64,000 nucleotides of DNA from a virus. This document shows, piece after piece, positions 5,758 through 19,337 of the stretch. Below the pieces are notes generated by a model that did no database searches, was not told the origin of the DNA, and was given only the letters and a program-made list of their open reading frames with translations. The stretch covers positions 1 through 64,000 of IMG/VR virus record IMGVR_UViG_3300032315_000675; one strand, 5' to 3'. Both the position numbers and the translations under genes were made by a program. Positions within the stretch are counted from its first letter, which is position 1; each line of letters begins with the position of its first letter.

Positions 5758-6137
5758 TGATCAACACAGTAAACGGATTGGGAAAGTATGTTATAGTCGA
5801 GGGTGGAATGCCCTCGACGACATATATGAATACTAGTTCAGGTTACATGAACGTCGGCGACCTGAGATACAACCCGACGAGAAACCAGGTTGAAGTCTAT
5901 GACGGGAATAACTGGATTACATTAAACAGCGGTCATGCTTCGGTTAGATTAACTTCTCACGCTGAAACAGTGATTGATTGGGCTGCTAAGAAGATGCAAG
6001 AGGATATGGAACTTGAAGCATTATCAAAATCTAATCCTACTATCGCTGACCTTGTTGAGCAGAAAAAGAATCTTGATCACAAGATCAAGATGGTACAAAT
6101 CTTAATTAAAGAAGAGCCAAAAGTTGGAACAAATTAA
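5757..6137 (+). CDS. Hypothetical phage protein
   Basis: Coupled ORF (TAATG overlap); 'GDLRYNP...EVYDG..W' motif plus coiled coil. Confidence 0.6.
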   Translation: MINTVNGLGKYVIVEGGMPSTTYMNTSSGYMNVGDLRYNPTRNQVEVYDGNNWITLNSGHASVRLTSHAETVIDWAAKKMQEDMELEALSKSNPTIADLVEQKKNLDHKIKMVQILIKEEPKVGTN

Positions 6138-7713
6138 TCTCTCAGCATCACATAACCCAGATTGGGCGTTGTTTTTGCCAGCAGTCTCGTCTTTCTTCAT
6201 CGCCGGCTTAGGAAAGCAGCGTGAAGGTGAAAACTATTTTGACCCGGCGAGAATCCCTGCGGCATTCAACGGTGATGTTGAGAAGTTAAACTTCCTTAAT
6301 GAGAAGGAAGGCTTGTATACTTACAAGTGGGGACTATATTCTGCTGGTCACGCAAATCTAGATATCACAAAGAATGATAACAACGAGTCTATCATTCGTA
6401 AGCGTGATCGGCAGAATACTTTCTTACTCGGTGACTCTGGTGGATTCCAGATTCTCAAGTGTCAGTGGCCTGCTGATTGGAAGGACCCTAATTGCCCTCG
6501 TGCAATGAAGAAGCGTACAGAAGTCCTCAAGTGGATGGATGAATACATGGACTATGGCATGTGTCTTGATATTCCATCACAGTCTCTTACGACTTATCAT
6601 ATCGATGACCCAAAAACCCGAAAGAAAGATCCGGTTACCGGAATACCAATCGTAGGTTCTGGCGTTTCCATTCATGGCATTAAAACAATTCAAGATGCTA
6701 TCACGGCGACTCATATAAACAATGAGTATTTCATTGCTAATCGTGATGGTCGTTGCAAGTTTCTAAACGTTCTGCAAGGACGTAATCATAAGCAGTCTGA
6801 TGACTGGTATGAAGAAATGAAGAAGTATTGCGACACTAACGTCTATGGTGACAAAGCATTCAATGGCTGGGCATTCGGTGGTCAAAACAAGATCGATATT
6901 CACTTGATGCTTAAACGAATCATCAACATCATTCACGATGGTTATCTTGAAGAAGGTAAGCAAGATTTGATTCACTGCCTTGGTACTTCTATCATGGAGT
7001 ATGCTGTAATCTTTACCGATATTCAGAAGGCTGTGCGTAAGTATCATAATCCAAACCTACAGATTACGTTTGACTGTGCATCTCCTTTCTTTGCTGCGGC
7101 AAAAGGTCTTGTTTACAATAACAACACGTTCGAACACGACAGTAAGTGGACGTATGCGATGGAGAAGACTGCCGAGGACAAAAAGTATGCCACTGACACT
7201 CGCAAGTTTAGTGATGGTGTACTCGCAGACGAGATTCATAAGTTGTTTACTGATAGTCCCGTAACGGACATGATGGTGATGAAGGACCTTTGCTATCGTG
7301 GTCAAGGTTTCTTAGGTCAGCACGGTAAAGAGACCAAGACTAGCTGGGACACTCTTAGCTACACTCTCATTCAGGCACACAACGTGTATCAGCATATGAC
7401 TGCGGTTCAAGAAGCTAATCGTCGCTACGAGCAGGGTATCATGCCGAAGATGGTCTTTGATCGTTTCGATGGTAGAACGTTTGGGCAAATTGTTGATGAG
7501 ATTTTCTCACTTAAAGATAGACAAAAGAGCTTAGATTTGCTAGAGTCACATAGTAGATTCTGGACTCAGATGAAAGCAGGGCAAGGGTTCTCTGGTAAGA
7601 AGACTATCAATGCCCAAACAATGTTTAACCAGTTATTTGAAGTCGCAGATAGCGACCCCAAAGATGAAGAAATTGAAGACAGCGACGATGCAATGAAAGG
7701 TGTGCTAGAATGA
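6124..7713 (+). CDS. dpdA: TGT-fold base-exchange enzyme (DpdA-like DNA transglycosylase)
   Basis: 'LGDSGGFQ' catalytic motif, 'LDIP', 'NVLQG', 'GWAFGG', 'HCLGT', 'FDCASP'; clustered with folE/queD/queE; TTG start. Confidence 0.8.
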   Translation: MEQINLSASHNPDWALFLPAVSSFFIAGLGKQREGENYFDPARIPAAFNGDVEKLNFLNEKEGLYTYKWGLYSAGHANLDITKNDNNESIIRKRDRQNTFLLGDSGGFQILKCQWPADWKDPNCPRAMKKRTEVLKWMDEYMDYGMCLDIPSQSLTTYHIDDPKTRKKDPVTGIPIVGSGVSIHGIKTIQDAITATHINNEYFIANRDGRCKFLNVLQGRNHKQSDDWYEEMKKYCDTNVYGDKAFNGWAFGGQNKIDIHLMLKRIINIIHDGYLEEGKQDLIHCLGTSIMEYAVIFTDIQKAVRKYHNPNLQITFDCASPFFAAAKGLVYNNNTFEHDSKWTYAMEKTAEDKKYATDTRKFSDGVLADEIHKLFTDSPVTDMMVMKDLCYRGQGFLGQHGKETKTSWDTLSYTLIQAHNVYQHMTAVQEANRRYEQGIMPKMVFDRFDGRTFGQIVDEIFSLKDRQKSLDLLESHSRFWTQMKAGQGFSGKKTINAQTMFNQLFEVADSDPKDEEIEDSDDAMKGVLE

Positions 7714-8685: not shown

Positions 8686-9876
8686 ATGCGTAGATTATAC
8701 TACATGGGTTTGGAAGCATACAATGCCCGTTATACATTACAACTAACTGAATGGAACAGGCGTGTCTTTGACCATCGTGGTCTTGATGTTACTTACGTTC
8801 CCGGTGAGACTCTTGATGACAGTCAGAAGATTGTTGTTGGGCAGGTACTTGATGCACATGGTCGCTCTTACTTTGCGATGAGCCAGATGATGAATCTGGT
8901 TAAGATGATGCAGCAAGGTGAGGTCACTAACGAAGATGTAATCTACTTTGAAGACATGTTCCAGCCGGGCTTTGAAAGTCTAGGCTACATCATCAATCAA
9001 GTTCCTGATAACCTTCGTCCTCGTATCTTTGTTCGCTGTCTTGCTCAAGCAATCGATCCAGATGACTTTGTTCATGTTTGGGGAATGTCTAAGTGGATGA
9101 GTGACTATGAGCGCATGGTCAACGAAATCGTTTCTATCTCAGGTGGTGCAGTTCTTGCGACTAACGAAGAAATGGTAATGCACATGAAGGTAGCAGGTTG
9201 GACTGCTCCTATCTATAATATCTCCGGGCTTGCTTTTGGTAAGAATGAAGTAATCCAACGTCTCGGGGACAAGCTTAGGAACTTTACTGATCGTCGCCTG
9301 CGTGTAGTGTTCTCTGCACGTTGGGACCAAGAGAAGCAGCCTGACTTCTACATGGACCTTGTTGAAGCCTGGAAAGAACGTTTCCCTAGCAAGGACGTAG
9401 AGTTTGTCGTTTGCAGCGGTAGTTCATTGAAATCAAACAATGAAAGTTACATGGCTCGCACTCGCAAGATGCAAGATAGCGGCAAGCTGACTGTCTACGA
9501 AAACCTAGACAAGCAGAAGTACTACGAAATCCTCAATGATAGTCGTGTCGTTTTCAACTGTGCGCTACAAGATTGGGTTTCTAATACTGTAAGCGAAGCT
9601 GATGCTTTGGGATGCAATGTACTTTACCCTGCTTATCGTAGCTTCCCCGAGACGTTTGCAAACGATTATGAGCGTATGTACATTCCGTGGTCGATTGATG
9701 ACGCAGTGAACAAGCTGGATCCATTGCTTCGTAAGGCTCATCCTAACATGGGCAAGATCAGTGATTGGACTGACAAGACTGTTGATCGTGTGATCGACAT
9801 CATTGAAGGCAAAGGTGAACAATGGTTGCGTATGTCAACAGACTATCGCAAACATTCTAAGGAAGCAAAGTATTAA
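8686..9876 (+). CDS. GT-B glycosyltransferase (GT4-like)
   Basis: '[13 protein letters not shown]', '[16 protein letters not shown]', 'PAYRSFPE'; ATG 8686 after an A-rich spacer preferred over the track start 8575. Confidence 0.8.
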
Positions 9877-10940
9877 TGCGTATTGAAAACGAGATACTGC
9901 TTGACTTTAGCGATGTGTTGATTCGCCCAAAGCGGTCAACACTTGCTAGCCGTAAGGAAGTGCAGCTACAACGAACCTACACATTTAAGCATAGCGGTCG
10001 TATTTGGGCCGGTGTTCCTATCATGGCCTCTAACATGGATGGTGTTGGTACTGTTGGTGTGGCTTTAGCGTTGCAAGCTCAAGACATGTTTACTTGTTTG
10101 ACCAAAGATACTATTGAAATTCCCTATGGATTGAATCCTCATAGATATGCTATCAGCACAGGCACGAGTGATAAAGACTTTGAACGCTTGCAAATGATAT
10201 TGAGAAAGCATAGTTATATTCATTTTATCTGCATTGATGTAGCAAATGGATATAGTGAACACTTTGGTGAGTTTGTTGCTAAGATTCGTGAGAAGTATCC
10301 AGAACACACAATTATTGCGGGTAATGTAGTAACCGCAGACATGACACAGGAGTTAATCTTAAATGGAGCAGACATTGTTAAAGTGGGCATCGGTCCTGGG
10401 AGCGTTTGCACAACTCGTATTCAAACTGGCGTTGGCTATCCTCAGCTTAGTGCTATTATGGAGTGCGCTGATGCTGCTCATGGTCTTGGCGGACATATCA
10501 TCTCCGACGGAGGATGTGTATATCCAGGAGATGTTGCTAAGGCATTCGGGGCCGGTGCAGATTTCGTGATGCTCGGTGGAATGCTTGCCGGACATGATGA
10601 AGGCGGTGGAGAAATGTTCACTCGCTGGAAGCAGACTGGATATTGTGACGAAACCGGTGATCCTATTTTACGAGGAGACCGAAAAGTGCAGTTCTACGGG
10701 ATGAGTAGTGATACTGCTATGAAGAAGCATCACGGCGGTGTGGCAGAGTATCGTAGTAGCGAAGGCAGAACAGTAGAGATTCCTTATAAAGGTCCGATTG
10801 AAAACACTATAAAAGATATTCTAGGTGGACTTCGCAGCACTTGCACTTATGTTGGTGCAAGTGAACTTAAGCATCTAAGTAAATGCACGACCTTTGTTCG
10901 GGTAAATAATCAATTTAACAACGTATTTGTAGAAAGATAA
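9876..10940 (+). CDS. guaC: GMP reductase
   Basis: '[18 protein letters not shown]', '[11 protein letters not shown]', '[13 protein letters not shown]', 'FYGMSS', 'YRSSEG'. Confidence 0.95.
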
Positions 10941-11382: not shown

Positions 11383-11389
11383 ATAAGAA

Positions 11390-11449
11390 CGTAACACAAA
11401 GGTTACGACATGAGAGTAATCTCTCCGTTGGGTATTAACGTTAGATACT
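11390..11449 (+). promoter_or_regulatory. Structured 5' leader of folE (three hairpins, possible pseudoknot)
   Basis: CGTAAC/GTTACG, GAGAG/CTCTC and CGTTG/TAACG stems downstream of TAAATA (11380-85). Confidence 0.45.
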
Positions 11450-11465
11450 TTGAAAGGAAAAAACT

Positions 11466-12616: not shown

Positions 12617-12824
12617 AGACCCTAATAAGAAAAATGATATTTGGTTCGGCGGCTGGAGTTATAATTTTACTATGCCGGCCAATTCATATAAGACTCCTCA
12701 ATATAAGAAGGAGACTGTTGAAGAAACGATTGCACGAATGGATGTCGATGACGAAATAGTTAGTGCGATGAATTCATATCCTACTGCCGAGAAGATGCTT
12801 AACAAATTGTATGGAAAATCATAA
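12606..12824 (+). CDS. Hypothetical protein
   Basis: Overlap-coupled small ORF in the operon. Confidence 0.5.
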   Translation: MEPKDPNKKNDIWFGGWSYNFTMPANSYKTPQYKKETVEETIARMDVDDEIVSAMNSYPTAEKMLNKLYGKS

Positions 12825-13029
12825 GTTAGACTTACACGGTGTGCGGCATCAAGATGTTGATGCTCTAGTGGAGAACTTTGTTCTGACGAATCAGCAAAGT
12901 TTTCCGCTTACCATCATATGCGGTAACAGTGTAAAAATGACACAACTAGCTGAAACAGTACTAAATAGGATTGGTTGTAACACTCTTGTATTACGTTACG
13001 GAACAATCATTGTACATGGGTTCAAATAA
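12811..13029 (+). CDS. Stand-alone Smr-domain protein
   Basis: 'KLDLHG' and 'LTIICGNS' Smr motifs. Confidence 0.7.
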   Translation: MENHKLDLHGVRHQDVDALVENFVLTNQQSFPLTIICGNSVKMTQLAETVLNRIGCNTLVLRYGTIIVHGFK

Positions 13030-13039
13030 AAACATCCGA

Positions 13040-13105
13040 ACCGGTCTCTTTGGGCATCATCCCGGTATACAAACTCTGCCGCCTGTGCTAATATTAACAT
13101 AGGAG
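13040..13105 (+). promoter_or_regulatory. Candidate preQ1-I-like riboswitch variant plus RBS-sequestering hairpin upstream of queD
   Basis: P1 ACCGG/CCGGT, loop GGCA pairing with downstream TGCC, A-rich linker ATACAAAC, then CCTGTG/CATAGG hairpin over AGGAG. Confidence 0.5.
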
Positions 13106-13113
13106 ATTAAAGT

Positions 13114-13617
13114 ATGGCAGGACAATCAGTATCATACAAGTACACGAGTACTAAAGAATGGCATGACGCATTCCCGTGTGCGTATCGTCAATGGCGCGCC
13201 GATAGTCACTGTAATAACATTCATGGTTATTCATTTACTATTAAGGTATACTTCGGTGCTGATACGCTAGATGCACGTAACTGGTGTGCAGACTACGGTG
13301 GTCTAAAAGACCTCAAGGCAATTCTTGAAGACCAGTTCGACCATACTCTGCTTGTAGCAGAAGACGATCCTGATATGGATTTGTTCAACCTGTTGCAAGA
13401 GCGCGGTATAGCAAAGTTGACTATCATCCCGGCAACTGGGTGTGAAGCACTTGCTGACATGCTCTACAAGTTCATCAACAGTGTCTATATCCCAGATCAT
13501 TGGGGTTCGGGTGAAGCTGAACGACTTTGGTGCTATCGAGTAGAAGTTCGTGAAACACAAAGCAACATGGCTTTCCGTGAAGGTCATCGTGAATGGAATG
13601 AGGATTTGATCGGATGA
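13114..13617 (+). CDS. queD: 6-carboxy-5,6,7,8-tetrahydropterin synthase
   Basis: 'SHCNNIHGYS', 'DYGGLK', 'FDHTLL', 'GCEALA', 'VEVRET'. Confidence 0.9.
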   Translation: MAGQSVSYKYTSTKEWHDAFPCAYRQWRADSHCNNIHGYSFTIKVYFGADTLDARNWCADYGGLKDLKAILEDQFDHTLLVAEDDPDMDLFNLLQERGIAKLTIIPATGCEALADMLYKFINSVYIPDHWGSGEAERLWCYRVEVRETQSNMAFREGHREWNEDLIG

Positions 13618-13790: not shown

Positions 13791-14339
13791 ATGACTAAGA
13801 AAGTACACTACACAGAAAAACAAATCGACACCTTTATCCATACTATCATTCGACAACTAACCAATGATGATTGGAAACCTGACTATATAGTTGGTGTTAC
13901 TCGCGGAGGACTAGTGCCTGCTCTTAAGATCAGTCACTACTTTGATGTTCCGATGGAAACTCTCAAGGTTAATCTGCGCGATGGCGGTGAAAGTGAAACA
14001 AACTGCTGGATGTCAGAAGACGCATTCGGTTATGTTCCTGTATTAGAACGAGCAATCGTAAAGAGCCGCTGGGACACGAAGAAGCGTAAGAATATTCTTA
14101 TCGTAGATGATGTCAATGACACTGGTGCAACTCTAGAATGGATCAAGAAAAGTTGGGAAAGCTGCTGCTTACCCAACGAACCTACATGGGAAACAGTCTG
14201 GGGGAACAATGTTCGCTTTGCTGTATTAGTTAACAATGACGCAAGTCCTACAGAAGTCAATTATATCGGGGAGTCTATCAATAAGACAGAAGACCCTCAG
14301 TGGTGTGTTTTTCCCTGGGAGTGTTGGTGGAAACTTTAA
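13791..14339 (+). CDS. Type I phosphoribosyltransferase (xanthine/guanine PRT-like)
   Basis: 'IVGVTRGGLVPA', PRPP-binding 'ILIVDDVNDTGAT', 'WCVFPWE'. Confidence 0.88.
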   Translation: MTKKVHYTEKQIDTFIHTIIRQLTNDDWKPDYIVGVTRGGLVPALKISHYFDVPMETLKVNLRDGGESETNCWMSEDAFGYVPVLERAIVKSRWDTKKRKNILIVDDVNDTGATLEWIKKSWESCCLPNEPTWETVWGNNVRFAVLVNNDASPTEVNYIGESINKTEDPQWCVFPWECWWKL

Positions 14340-14728
14340 GAGACGACTTGATGGTGCAACAGCAGATAACGACTGATTGGGAACATATGGTCGGAGTGAT
14401 CATGCTGAACCAAACAGGAAGAAAGCCTGTGAAATACGTTCTGCCGAAATTCTTAAAAAAGTTTCCAAACCCAACAAGTCTCCTAAATAGCACAGTGGAG
14501 GAAGTGATCGATATCATCAAGCCACTTGGTATGTATAACATCAGAGAGAAACGGTTGCGCCGAATGTCAGAGGACTACTTGACTTGGAATAAACAAGATG
14601 CGTTAGCCCTTTACGGAATCGGTAAATACGGTAATGATAGTTATGAGATTTTCTTTAAACAAAACTACGACGTAACACCCACCGATAAAGAATTAGTGCG
14701 GTTCCTAAATGATAGAAAAGATAGTTGA
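14327..14728 (+). CDS. HhH-GPD DNA glycosylase (MBD4-like)
   Basis: 'IMLNQT', 'IIKPLGMYNIR', 'LYGIGKYGNDSY', 'PTDKEL'; GTG 14327 with GGAG upstream. Confidence 0.8.
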   Translation: METLRDDLMVQQQITTDWEHMVGVIMLNQTGRKPVKYVLPKFLKKFPNPTSLLNSTVEEVIDIIKPLGMYNIREKRLRRMSEDYLTWNKQDALALYGIGKYGNDSYEIFFKQNYDVTPTDKELVRFLNDRKDS

Positions 14729-14730
14729 CA

Positions 14731-15573
14731 ATGGCTGTGATTAAAGTAAGCGAATTATTCTACTCAATTCAAGGTGAAGGACGATACATGGGCGTACCAA
14801 GTATTTTCCTCAGAACGTTTGGCTGTAACTTCACTTGCGGCGGATTCGGAATGCCTAAAGGAGAGATGTCAGACGAGCGTGAGAAGTTAAATCCAAAAGA
14901 TTATACTGAGTATGGTTCTCTTCCGCTTCTCTCTACAGGCTGCGATTCATATGCATCCTGGGATCCTCGGTTTAAGCATCTGTCTCCTGTCAGAGACATC
15001 GATTCTATCGTCGATAGTATTATGAAGCTGCTACCGTTTGGAGAATGGAGGGACGAACACCTTGTCATCACAGGAGGAGAACCTCTCTTAGGTTGGCAAC
15101 GTGCTTATCCTGCGTTACTCGGTCATCCCAAAATGAAGGGTCTGAAGGAGATTACGTTTGAGACAAATGGTACACAAGAGTTGAGCGAAGAACTGTATGG
15201 GTTTTTGATCGACTGGGAAACTTCACAAAATAATCGACAGGTTACATTTAGTGTCAGTGCAAAACTAAGCTGTAGCGGTGAGTCTAGAGAACGGGCAATC
15301 TGCCCAGACATTGTCAGTAACTATGAGAATGTTGGGTATGCGTATCTCAAGTTTGTGATCGCTACCGAAGATGATGCTCAAGAAGCTCTTGAAGTAACCA
15401 AGCTTTATCGTGATAGCGGGTTCGAAGGACCCGTGTATTTCATGCCAGTAGGCGGTGTTGAAAGTGTCTACCATCTTAACAACAAGAATGTTGCACTGGC
15501 TGCGATGAAGCACGGTGTTCGCTATAGTGATCGTTTACAAGTCCCTCTTTTCAAAAATCAATGGGCAACTTAA
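14731..15573 (+). CDS. queE: 7-carboxy-7-deazaguanine synthase (radical SAM)
   Basis: 'ELFYSIQGEG', 'FLRTFGCNFTC...GCDS', 'VITGGEPL', 'FETNGT', 'YSDRLQ'. Confidence 0.92.
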   Translation: MAVIKVSELFYSIQGEGRYMGVPSIFLRTFGCNFTCGGFGMPKGEMSDEREKLNPKDYTEYGSLPLLSTGCDSYASWDPRFKHLSPVRDIDSIVDSIMKLLPFGEWRDEHLVITGGEPLLGWQRAYPALLGHPKMKGLKEITFETNGTQELSEELYGFLIDWETSQNNRQVTFSVSAKLSCSGESRERAICPDIVSNYENVGYAYLKFVIATEDDAQEALEVTKLYRDSGFEGPVYFMPVGGVESVYHLNNKNVALAAMKHGVRYSDRLQVPLFKNQWAT

Positions 15574-18033: not shown

Positions 18034-19337
18034 TGCATCAATAGGAATGAGTTAAGAACGTCATTGCGATTGGCGGAGTCGTCGCCGTCGCCCGGCTTAA
18101 CAATGACGTTCCACTTACCTACTTCCTTACCTTGAGGTGTTTTCATCATCTCATCATAAGTCAAGATGGACTCCGGCTTTACGCTGTATTTTGCAGCAAT
18201 GCGTTGCTTAAGCGAATTGATTGCGTTCTTGTCGATGTAGAACAGCTTTCCTTTCTCGTCTCGGTCAAGAAGGTCCTTGAATAGAACCTCGGGAACAACT
18301 CGACTGTTCTTAGTTTTTTGGAAGTCAATCTGCTTCTCTTCTCCTGGCTTCGCACCCATCGAATAGTTAATCTTGAAGTTGTCTGGCTTTCCGCCCTGTG
18401 CAACTGATGCTAGTTTGGTGTAAGCATAGAAATCTACATTAGGGTGCTTTTTAGCTAATGCATACGACATTGCAAGATATTGAGGAGAGAAGAAGTCGCC
18501 GGCATCATGCCATCGAATAACAAGTTTAGTTTTCTTGTCTTTCTTGTTGAACTTCTTGTCGGCAGCATCAATTTCTCTGCTCATCATGTCCATGAAGCCG
18601 TCAGGGTCATTATACAAGAAGTTTAGAAGCTGCGTTTGTCCTTCAGCAACATTCTTCCACTGAACATATCCGCCCTTCATAGCATAACAGTAAGTCTGAC
18701 ATTCTCCTGCGCCCGGGCAAGTATCGATGATCACAAACTTCTTGTCGTCTTCGTCATATGCTAGTCCCTTTAGAGCAGGAAGACCGATGTTGTAAAACAC
18801 ACTAGTACTACCATCGCTATGCTGCATCTTTTCATTCTGCTTTAGAATCTTACCCGGACGCCGAGTGATCAAGTTCTGTAGAGCATCTAGGTCATACTTT
18901 TTACCGTCTTGGTCAACGATAGGAACTACTGAACTTCGGTGAATGTAGGGCTGCTTGAACTTGTCCTGCTTAGTTTTGCCTGACACATACTTGTCAGTTC
19001 CGCGAGCGGTCTTTTTTGCTGCACCCGTCTTAGGGTCTGTGACAGGTTTACCCATGATACGATCTAGATAACCCTTCAATTCCTTTGGACTTAACTCACG
19101 AGAAGGTGCGTCAAGTTTAGCTTCTTCAATTTCCTCATCGTCCCAACGCTTATCATCTGCGTCGTCTTCGGGGTACTCCGGGGTGTCGCCTGGTTCTTCT
19201 TCATCAGGTGTTACCACCCCCGCTGCATTGAGAAACTGATCCAATGTCATCACGTTCAGTTTATCCGAAAACGGAGAAGAACCCTTGACTTCTTCCGAAT
19301 TCTCTGTTATAAGATTGAGTATGTTTCTAATATCCAT
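18030..19337 (-). CDS. Gp88-like protein with acidic N-terminal leader
   Basis: 'TCPGAGECQTYCYA', 'IRWHDAGDFFS', 'FYAYTK'; ATG 19337 with AGGA upstream and TAAATA on the minus strand at ~19367-72. Confidence 0.7.
   Translation of the reverse strand: MDIRNILNLITENSEEVKGSSPFSDKLNVMTLDQFLNAAGVVTPDEEEPGDTPEYPEDDADDKRWDDEEIEEAKLDAPSRELSPKELKGYLDRIMGKPVTDPKTGAAKKTARGTDKYVSGKTKQDKFKQPYIHRSSVVPIVDQDGKKYDLDALQNLITRRPGKILKQNEKMQHSDGSTSVFYNIGLPALKGLAYDEDDKKFVIIDTCPGAGECQTYCYAMKGGYVQWKNVAEGQTQLLNFLYNDPDGFMDMMSREIDAADKKFNKKDKKTKLVIRWHDAGDFFSPQYLAMSYALAKKHPNVDFYAYTKLASVAQGGKPDNFKINYSMGAKPGEEKQIDFQKTKNSRVVPEVLFKDLLDRDEKGKLFYIDKNAINSLKQRIAAKYSVKPESILTYDEMMKTPQGKEVGKWNVIVKPGDGDDSANRNDVLNSFLLMH

Follow-up and report, generated by a model that had tools for sequence, protein, structure and literature searches.

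The Leader of the queD-Like Gene

The DNA analyzed here is the first 64 kb (positions 1 to 64,000, hereafter the window) of the IMG/VR virus record IMGVR_UViG_3300032315_000675, and the element in question lies in the leader gap at 13030-13113, the 84 bases between a 72-aa open reading frame (ORF) and a QueD-like gene. The source record is 77.4 kb long and has a CheckV completeness of 22%, and it therefore comes from a large phage. Comparisons among related phages indicate that the element is genuine: a cis-regulatory RNA pseudoknot, restricted to phages and deeply conserved among them. Its parts and the two flanking genes are as follows, with P1 and P2 denoting the helices of the knot and L1 to L3 its loops; the helices that cover the ribosome site are called sequestor helices.

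12811..13029, + strand: co-directional upstream ORF of 72 aa, no family match; stop codon 10 nt before P1
13040..13044, + strand: P1 5' strand ACCGG, pairing with 13062-66
13045..13051, + strand: L1, N-C-U (here UCU) plus the variable linker CUUU
13052..13056, + strand: P2 5' strand GGGCA; 13052-55 pair with 13084-81, and A13056/C13080 is a mismatch
13057..13061, + strand: L2, nearly always UCAUC; its last base, C13061, is the unpaired C that never varies and immediately precedes the P1 3' strand
13062..13066, + strand: P1 3' strand CCGGU, covarying in the family alignments
13067..13073, + strand: A-rich L3 AUACAAA, pattern NNANANA, with three invariant A in the MAFFT alignment
13074..13079, + strand: YUCUGC hexamer (here CUCUGC), unpaired in the knot; UCUGC identical in 135/136 aptamers
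13075..13081, + strand: outer sequestor helix, 5' strand UCUGCCG, pairing with 13115-13121 UGGCAGG in the minimum free energy (MFE) structures
13080..13084, + strand: P2 3' strand CGCCU (13081-84 pair); the same bases lie within the sequestering helices
13082..13103, + strand: inner sequestor hairpin CCUGUG (13082-87)/CAUAGG (13098-103), with one G-U pair, covering AGG within the Shine-Dalgarno (SD) sequence
13101..13105, + strand: SD sequence AGGAG, 8 nt before the ATG at 13114
13114..13617, + strand: queD-like gene of 167 aa, PTPS/QueD fold, active-site motif C..HGY (PF01242, E 6e-19)

The site had been put forward, in an original prediction made from the letters of the window, as a preQ1-I-like riboswitch candidate. 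The bases on which that proposal was built were all present, namely ACCGG/CCGGT, U13045, C13061, GGCA/TGCC, CCTGTG/CATAGG and the ATG at 13114, and an A-rich stretch, ATACAAAC, begins at 13067. The hairpin at 13082-87/13098-103 that had been seen over the queD SD is likewise there, and leaders of this hairpin type make up 78 of 162 distinct leaders. Its loop reads TGCTAATAT, resembling an extended -10 promoter element, and the outer sequestor helix covers the UG of the start codon together with codons 2-3. Since the stop codon of the upstream ORF lies 10 nt ahead of P1, transcripts reading through from that ORF would carry the aptamer. The only PDB match of the window QueD was a 6-carboxytetrahydropterin synthase, 7V0F.

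Compared with dinucleotide shuffles, the leader alone gave no single-sequence folding signal (MFE -19.3 kcal/mol against a mean of -19.2 kcal/mol, z -0.03). As it folds no better than its shuffles, the case for the structure rests on comparison with its relatives.

Conservation and Covariation of the Pseudoknot

At least 597 protein relatives of QueD were found in IMG/VR contigs. The same element was present ahead of queD in 73 of the 80 loci kept, and more than 150 distinct versions of it were collected ahead of queD-type genes, all in uncultured phage contigs. A MAFFT alignment was made of 56 distinct copies from a first collection that had required P1 to pair. In this alignment P1 was 100% paired, with compensatory changes at three of its five pairs and with the two top pairs invariant G-C (56/56). 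P2 was 82% paired and showed double-sided changes at all six of its pairs, the four core pairs being 87-98% paired with many G-U. Overall, 90.3% of the cells paired, compared with 32-46% when the partner strand was slid by 1-3 columns, and the covariation score of 0.546 was reached in none of 500 shuffles, which scored 0.186. By this comparison the element goes well beyond what chance would give.

A second set was collected with a DNA pattern, TCATCCC-N5-ANANAYTCTGC, which fixes the unpaired consensus and two invariant C of P1 and leaves the three lower P1 pairs and P2 unconstrained. Full-length covariance-model matches of 33-71 bits were obtained for 97 of the 100 viral contigs with this pattern. 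In the resulting alignment of 92 copies P1 was 99.6% paired and P2 87% paired; the top two P1 pairs were G-C in 92/92, and the free P1 pairs varied as AU/UA/GU, GC/CG/UA and CG/AU/UA. These copies were fitted to P2 by the model, so that the MAFFT alignment is the cleaner test of P2. The G-U pairs of P2 would be C/A mismatches on the other strand, which indicates that the RNA is read from the + strand.

The make-up of the family was read from 136 distinct aptamers. Seven P1 pair sets were found (AGCGG/CCGCU, AGUGG/CCACU, AGAGG/CCUCU, UGCGG/CCGCA, ACCGG/CCGGU, AUCGG/CCGAU and GGCGG/CCGCU), and the loop between the P1 strands measured 13-19 nt. L1 consists of N-C-U followed by 0-6 variable bases; CU occupied positions 2-3 in 135 of the 136, and the first base was U in 57, C in 49 and A in 30, the window having U13045. 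L2 was UCAUC in 123/136, with the final unpaired C kept in every one (136/136). L3 is 7 nt long, rarely 8, has the pattern NNANANA, and is followed by YUCUGC (135/136) and then by the P2 3' strand (P2b). Unpaired bases conserved to this degree (UCAUC, YUCUGC and CU) are typical of a binding pocket.

The P2 5' strand lies directly against the conserved UCAUC in every subgroup, and the P2 3' strand starts immediately after the invariant UCUGC. Because the family P2b begins there, P2 of the window is GGGC(13052-55)/GCCU(13081-84), composed of G13052-U13084, G13053-C13083, G13054-C13082 and C13055-G13081, with A13056 facing C13080 in a mismatch. The pairing first proposed as P2, GGCA(13053-56)/TGCC(13077-80), lies about three bases upstream of this register on the 3' strand and uses the invariant UGC. 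It is possible in the window sequence alone, with a duplex energy of -4.3 kcal/mol compared with -6.5 kcal/mol for the conserved register, but the family does not conserve it. Elsewhere in the family P2 takes the forms GACGC/GUGUC, GACAC/GUGUC, AGACAU/AUGUCU, GGCG/CGCC, GGCA/UGCC, GGCU/AGCC, GACUU/AAGUC, GGCUA/UAGCC and AUGCG/CGCAU.

Distribution and Association with queD

The covariance model found one copy of the element in the record from which the window derives and a single significant copy apiece in five larger records, among them a 333-kb record that is 92% complete. No second copy was found elsewhere in the genome of the window, including in the 83-nt leader ahead of folE (11383-11465, + strand), which is one of the few other gaps in a tightly packed gene block.

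The tie of the element to phage queD operons was exclusive. Of the copies selected by the DNA pattern, 74/78 stood directly ahead of a QueD-like ORF whose product had 28-93% identity to that of the window. In the contigs L292 and L285, and in L061 found earlier, one extra ORF follows the element and QueD comes next; in L215 QueD is present but was missed by the SD rule, and in L288 the reading frame runs off the contig after 16 codons. That the link to QueD is kept over 28-93% protein identity indicates that the RNA is better conserved than the protein and is tied to queD operons.

All 74 of the motif-linked QueD-like proteins have C..HGY where 7V0F has HGH. We considered this variant as a correlate of the RNA switch and rejected it, because HGY is shared by the QueD homologues of the phages Acidovorax ACP17, Xanthomonas X1 and Dinoroseobacter R5C, which lack the RNA, and is thus a trait of the phage QueD subfamily. 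These three are the closest cultured homologues, and in them queD overlaps or abuts the upstream gene, with no leader between. No cultured carrier phage was found, and a blastn search of 50,697 deposited phage genomes failed to match the locus and, for the leader, yielded nothing but chance fragments.

Scanning 596 Gb of bacterial and archaeal genomes for the same DNA pattern listed 80 matches, none of which scored above 27 bits; their alignments covered just the pattern, and they were judged to be due to chance. This covers the matches listed only, so that absence from these genomes cannot be claimed. None was found in 151 sampled genomes of one proteobacterial class. Full-text literature searches located no description of the motif. 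The text of a catalogue with over 10,000 candidates for viral structured RNAs (PMC10690425) mentions neither queD nor riboswitches, and the motif could be listed there unnamed.

One relative contig (L077) also carries a two-piece permuted transfer-messenger RNA of betaproteobacterial type at 472-864 on the + strand (RF01850, 149 bits; RF04321, 146 bits); the queD leader of that contig lies about 2 kb downstream. Its sequence type hints at Betaproteobacteria as hosts.

Expression Platform and Direction of Control

The leaders downstream of the knot are of several platform types. In the hairpin type (78/162 distinct leaders, including the window), a stem of the form CCUAUG/CAUAGG covers AGG in the SD, and its first bases are the final 2-3 of P2b. 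Its arms vary as CCUAUG/CAUAGG, CCUAUA/UAUAGG (a compensatory change), CCUGUG/CAUAGG (G-U, as in the window) and UCUAUG/CAUAGG. In the anti-start type (84/162), P2b and the next 3-4 bases are complementary to the region of the start codon; 72 of these 84 leaders have an uninterrupted helix of 6-11 bp that takes in the AUG. The bases after P2b covary with those before the AUG: CAUC or CGUC occurs with G at -1 in 49/50 leaders, and CAUUG with CA at -2/-1 in 16/16. The second codon also tracks P2b, AAGUC being found with AUGACUU, and GUGUC, AUGCC or GCC with AUGGCA.

When the 3' part of each leader was folded (MFE), two or more bases of P2b paired with the SD/AUG zone in 157/162. The controls on this count were weak for shuffling and modest for swapping, as described below, and the covariation between P2b and the bases before the AUG is for this reason the stronger evidence for a shared strand. 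P2b pairs either in the knot or in the sequestor, and the two pairings are mutually exclusive.

In the window the sequestor is a two-tier helix formed by 13075-81 with 13115-21 and by 13082-87 with 13098-103. The MFE of the window leader was -19.3 kcal/mol with the sequestor and -11.5 kcal/mol with the P2 strands withheld, a cost of 7.8 kcal/mol, and the P2 duplex is worth about -6.5 kcal/mol before loop penalties. Since withholding these strands costs more than P2 yields, the knot needs extra stabilization and the default state should be closed. Moreover, as P2b is the anti-SD/anti-start strand, formation of the knot should free the ribosome site and turn translation ON. The earlier suggestion was that the element feeds back on the phage's own pathway; feedback by an end product (OFF) is argued against by this role of P2b, seen in 157/162 leaders.

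Hairpin-type leaders also carry a promoter-like signal. The end of P1 together with L3 reads like a -35 element (TTGACA, TTTACA or TATACA), and 17 bases on, the stem and loop of the hairpin read TGnTAnnnT; TGnTAnnnT with a -35 match of at least 4/6 at 16-18 nt is kept in 74/78 of them. In the window the signal spans 13066-13094 (TATACA, 4/6; 17 nt; TG-C-TAATAT, 4/6, within TGCTAATAT) and falls below the threshold of the promoter scan. Judged by its sequence, it could act as a bypass promoter for queD in leaders of this type, and transcription starting inside the hairpin would yield queD mRNAs with neither aptamer nor sequestor. Because hairpin-type leaders keep the covarying knot and the 84 other leaders lack the promoter signal, the long transcripts must nevertheless matter.

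The Gene Neighborhood and the 7-Deazaguanine Pathway

Upstream of the leader the window encodes PolB, an ORF with a DSGGFQ motif, a GT-B glycosyltransferase, an IMPDH/GMP-reductase-family gene, FolE and a cytidylyltransferase-like gene, and downstream QueD, a phosphoribosyltransferase (PRTase), an HhH-GPD glycosylase, QueE, a second glycosyltransferase and an epimerase. The genes most relevant to the pathway are these:

6124-7713, + strand: ORF of 529 aa with the transglycosylase-type motif LLGDSGGFQIL, directly after the polymerase module
9876-10940, + strand: IMPDH/GMP-reductase-family gene
13791-14339, + strand: type-I PRTase
14725-15573, + strand: QueE

The 529-aa ORF had no Pfam, PHROG or PDB sequence match (best PDB E 0.34), and the TGT model PF01702 found nothing in five records, the DSGGFQ motif at 6124-7713 notwithstanding. 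On the strength of that motif the ORF may be a very divergent DpdA-like DNA transglycosylase.

Full-length QueC (PF06508) was found neither in the source record nor in 20 motif-bearing records, three of which are 92-100% complete. The idea of a pathway that ends ahead of preQ0 and preQ1 therefore holds for the clade, unless QueC of the host is used, and with QueC absent from the pathway a ligand other than preQ1 is reasonable. The matches to the QueC model comprised only an N-terminal PP-loop (the first ~60 positions) in unrelated ORFs of 310-343 aa, and such ORFs were the only QueC-like signal in near-complete motif-bearing phages. One is L091:1327-2310 (G001:68861-69844), which has an SGGMDS PP-loop, and similar ORFs occur in G003, G011 and G020.

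A PRTase gene accompanies queD in 65/200 loci and in 3/3 near-complete genomes. A GMP-reductase-like gene was found in 14/200 loci and in 0/5 large records, and is confined to the subgroup of the window. In the route to tubercidin, a PRTase joins 7-carboxy-7-deazaguanine to phosphoribosyl pyrophosphate (PRPP), after which a GMP-reductase-like enzyme acts (PMC6112128). A tubercidin-like pathway was tried as a guide to the ligand and set aside as a partial analogy, the PRTase being common and the GMP-reductase-like gene rare. By the same analogy the phage PRTase recalls the tubercidin 7-carboxy-7-deazaguanine-PRPP transferase, which we regard as a lead and not as a finding.

Interpretation and Alternative Explanations

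Based on its sequence features, the element is most likely a new riboswitch class with preQ1-I-related architecture that serves as a translational ON switch for QueD. We consider it somewhat more probable than not that the queD leader is a cis-acting translational ON switch whose knot is stabilized by a small molecule. The aptamer-like domain at 13040-13084 folds as an H-type pseudoknot with a P1 of 5 bp, a P2 of 4-5 bp and single-stranded NCU, UCAUC, NNANANA and YUCUGC. The 3' strand of P2 is also the 5' part of a more stable helix, which buries the SD (13082-87/13098-103) as well as the start codon (13075-81/13115-21). As long as the knot is unformed, the sequestor would win and queD would be left untranslated; with the knot stabilized, the P2 3' strand would be withdrawn, the ribosome site would open and QueD would be made. 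The stabilizer would most likely be a small molecule held against the invariant C13061 on top of the P1-closing G-C, as in preQ1-I. Our best guess at the ligand is a compound with a guanine-like face, which might be 7-carboxy-7-deazaguanine or a different 7-deazaguanine, or else guanine or QueD's pterin substrate. The small-molecule drive, the direction of control in vivo and the kind of ligand are all inferred.

Several observations weigh against this account. No known riboswitch model matches the element, so that a preQ1-I-like pocket is drawn by analogy, and conservation is lacking at the base right after P1, a ligand contact in preQ1-I. It would be unusual for a biosynthetic gene to be under an ON switch. 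In addition, transcripts from the promoter-like signal inside the platform of the window type (74/78) would escape the switch. The shuffle control for the sequestor was weak, as 69% of local shuffles also paired P2b with the SD/AUG zone, and the swap test was modest (-6.9 vs -5.5 kcal/mol, the native combination being better in 113/162).

The knot might instead be a translational operator, with a phage or host protein shifting the same two-state equilibrium. Such operators exist in phages, for example the leader pseudoknot of T4 gene 32, and conserved single-stranded bases around a covarying knot would suit a protein site as well as a ligand pocket; confinement of the element to phages, among the genomes sampled, and the absence of a riboswitch model match point the same way. 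We nevertheless think a protein effector unlikely, as the element stays with QueD over 28-93% identity and on several platforms, throughout which the effector would need to be conserved, and no candidate RNA-binding gene is consistently adjacent. Furthermore, the knot is compact (~45 nt), and the way its unpaired C rests on a G-C floor resembles a known ligand pocket. A device without any effector, in which knot and sequestor compete kinetically or by temperature (as in a translation burst, a thermometer or mRNA stabilization), would agree with the two-state architecture. However, about 20 unpaired positions are nearly invariant over deep divergence, which pure folding competition does not require, and we regard such a device as very improbable.

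It is also improbable that the leader is mainly a DNA element, that is, a sigma-70-type queD promoter with the P1 inverted repeat as its operator and with RNA structure that is incidental or serves read-through transcripts only. The signal kept in 74/78 hairpin-type leaders speaks for a promoter, with TATACA-17-TGCTAATAT in the window and a perfect TTGACA in some relatives, but the 84 leaders of other types keep the knot without it, P2 is not palindromic, and its covariation includes numerous G-U pairs, which on the opposite strand would be mismatched as C/A. The promoter scan, moreover, does not flag the site, and the leaders are related by descent, so that 74/78 does not count independent events. 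Nor do we give much credence to a true but divergent preQ1-I riboswitch that binds preQ1 or preQ0 of the host pool and represses queD when they are plentiful. The 5-bp P1, the G-C floor, the UC before the P1 3' strand (type I), the P2 to the tail and an A-rich L3 that is often C-interrupted are all shared with preQ1-I, and our family model partly aligned a Bacillus preQ1-I aptamer over P1 and L3. Against this, RF00522 fell short of E 10 at the site, the reciprocal match reached only 4.9 bits (E 0.5), the L1 base after P1 is not a conserved U, and an invariant UCUGC hexamer precedes P2b. P2b is also anti-SD/anti-start and not SD, so that a ligand would activate, and the phages lack QueC, with no QueF noted in the window.

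Returning to the ligand-stabilized ON switch, we speculate further, with less assurance, that the element is the first phage-only riboswitch class: derived from preQ1-I, provided with an extra hexamer and an ON platform, sensing an intermediate or by-product of the QueC-less 7-deazapurine pathway, and gating the committed enzyme of DNA hypermodification. The compound sensed would then be 7-carboxy-7-deazaguanine, 7-deazaguanine, guanine from base exchange, or dihydroneopterin-triphosphate. The literature searched treats riboswitches as devices of bacteria and describes each of the three preQ1 classes as an OFF switch. If this speculation is correct, phages run metabolite-sensing RNA control over their anti-restriction chemistry, probably with a new ligand among the few purine and deazapurine sensors. 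The aptamer-like part is ~45 nt long and has more than 130 natural variants, which makes it amenable to direct testing and an attractive compact ON switch for engineering. The element is also the mark of a large clade of phages, uncultured and for the most part very large, with a 7-deazaguanine pathway that ends before preQ0, and as a marker of that clade it bears on which modified base these phages make.

Comparison with PreQ1-I and Other Known RNAs

Class I preQ1 aptamers are H-type pseudoknots with a strictly conserved C before the P1 3' strand and a G-C floor; in type I this C follows a U, in types II and III an A (PMC11625349). Their ligand is read by a U of L1 together with an A of the A-rich L3, the SD bases lie in P2, and in the preQ1 classes ligand-dependent folding buries the SD bases (PMC11625349). 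The phage element had been described as having this layout, and a good part of the description stands: a 5-bp P1 closed by G-C, the unpaired C, the A-rich L3 and a P2 to the tail. The U after P1, in contrast, is not conserved, the P2 register is shifted, a hexamer stands before P2b and RF00522 does not match.

Membership of preQ1-I by Rfam model was not borne out. Among the 4227 covariance models of Rfam 15, no family reached its gathering threshold (39 bits for RF00522) over the whole window, nor was there any match at E<=10 on 12950-13200. RF00522 likewise gave no match at E<=10 at the site, and none in 11 relatives. Its best score in the source record, 13.8 bits (E 0.17) at 18304-18329 on the - strand, lies inside a GP88-like gene and is probably noise. 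As a genuine example of preQ1-I we used Bacillus sp. L336:1506-1541 (RF00522, 46.8 bits), which reads AGAGG-UUC-UAG-CAAAAC-CCUCU-AUAAAAAA-CUA-AGG; the phage family model (R2, filters off) gave it 4.9 bits (E 0.5) and aligned its P1 and L3 only.

The likeness to preQ1-I (RF00522) is nonetheless considerable. Both are H-type pseudoknot leaders of a queuosine/7-deazaguanine gene, with a P1 of 5 bp and an invariant closing G-C, an invariant unpaired C that stands directly before the P1 3' strand and follows a U (the type I arrangement), a 7-nt L3 rich in A, and a short P2 that joins the loop to the 3' tail. With respect to the Bacillus aptamer, the phage variants AGAGG/CCUCU (P1) and AUAAAAA (L3) occur letter for letter. 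The differences are that the phage loop is 13-19 nt long compared with 11 nt in the Bacillus example, that L1 is NCU and not U-led, with a nearly invariant UCAUC, and that the phage UCUGC hexamer, absent from the Bacillus example, lies between L3 and P2b and gives a P1-to-P2b span of 13 nt. Whereas in preQ1-I the P2 3' strand carries SD bases, or else the knot favors a terminator, so that the ligand turns the gene OFF, the phage P2b is anti-SD/anti-start and in the window lies at least 16 nt upstream of the SD. Finally, the phage family occurred in phage contigs only (in the genomes sampled), belongs to QueC-less pathways and is wired ON and not OFF. Judged by these sequence features, the phage element would work like the preQ1-I aptamer, from which it may descend, and it cannot be filed as a member of that class.

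In its wiring the element can be compared with the adenine (add) riboswitch, a translational ON riboswitch that releases a sequestered ribosome site. The add riboswitch differs in being built on a three-way junction and not an H-type pseudoknot, in its ligand pocket and gene class, and in having no sequence or model similarity to the phage element. The two are alike in having two exclusive folds, in an aptamer strand that doubles as the anti-SD/anti-start strand, and in a bound aptamer that frees the ribosome site.

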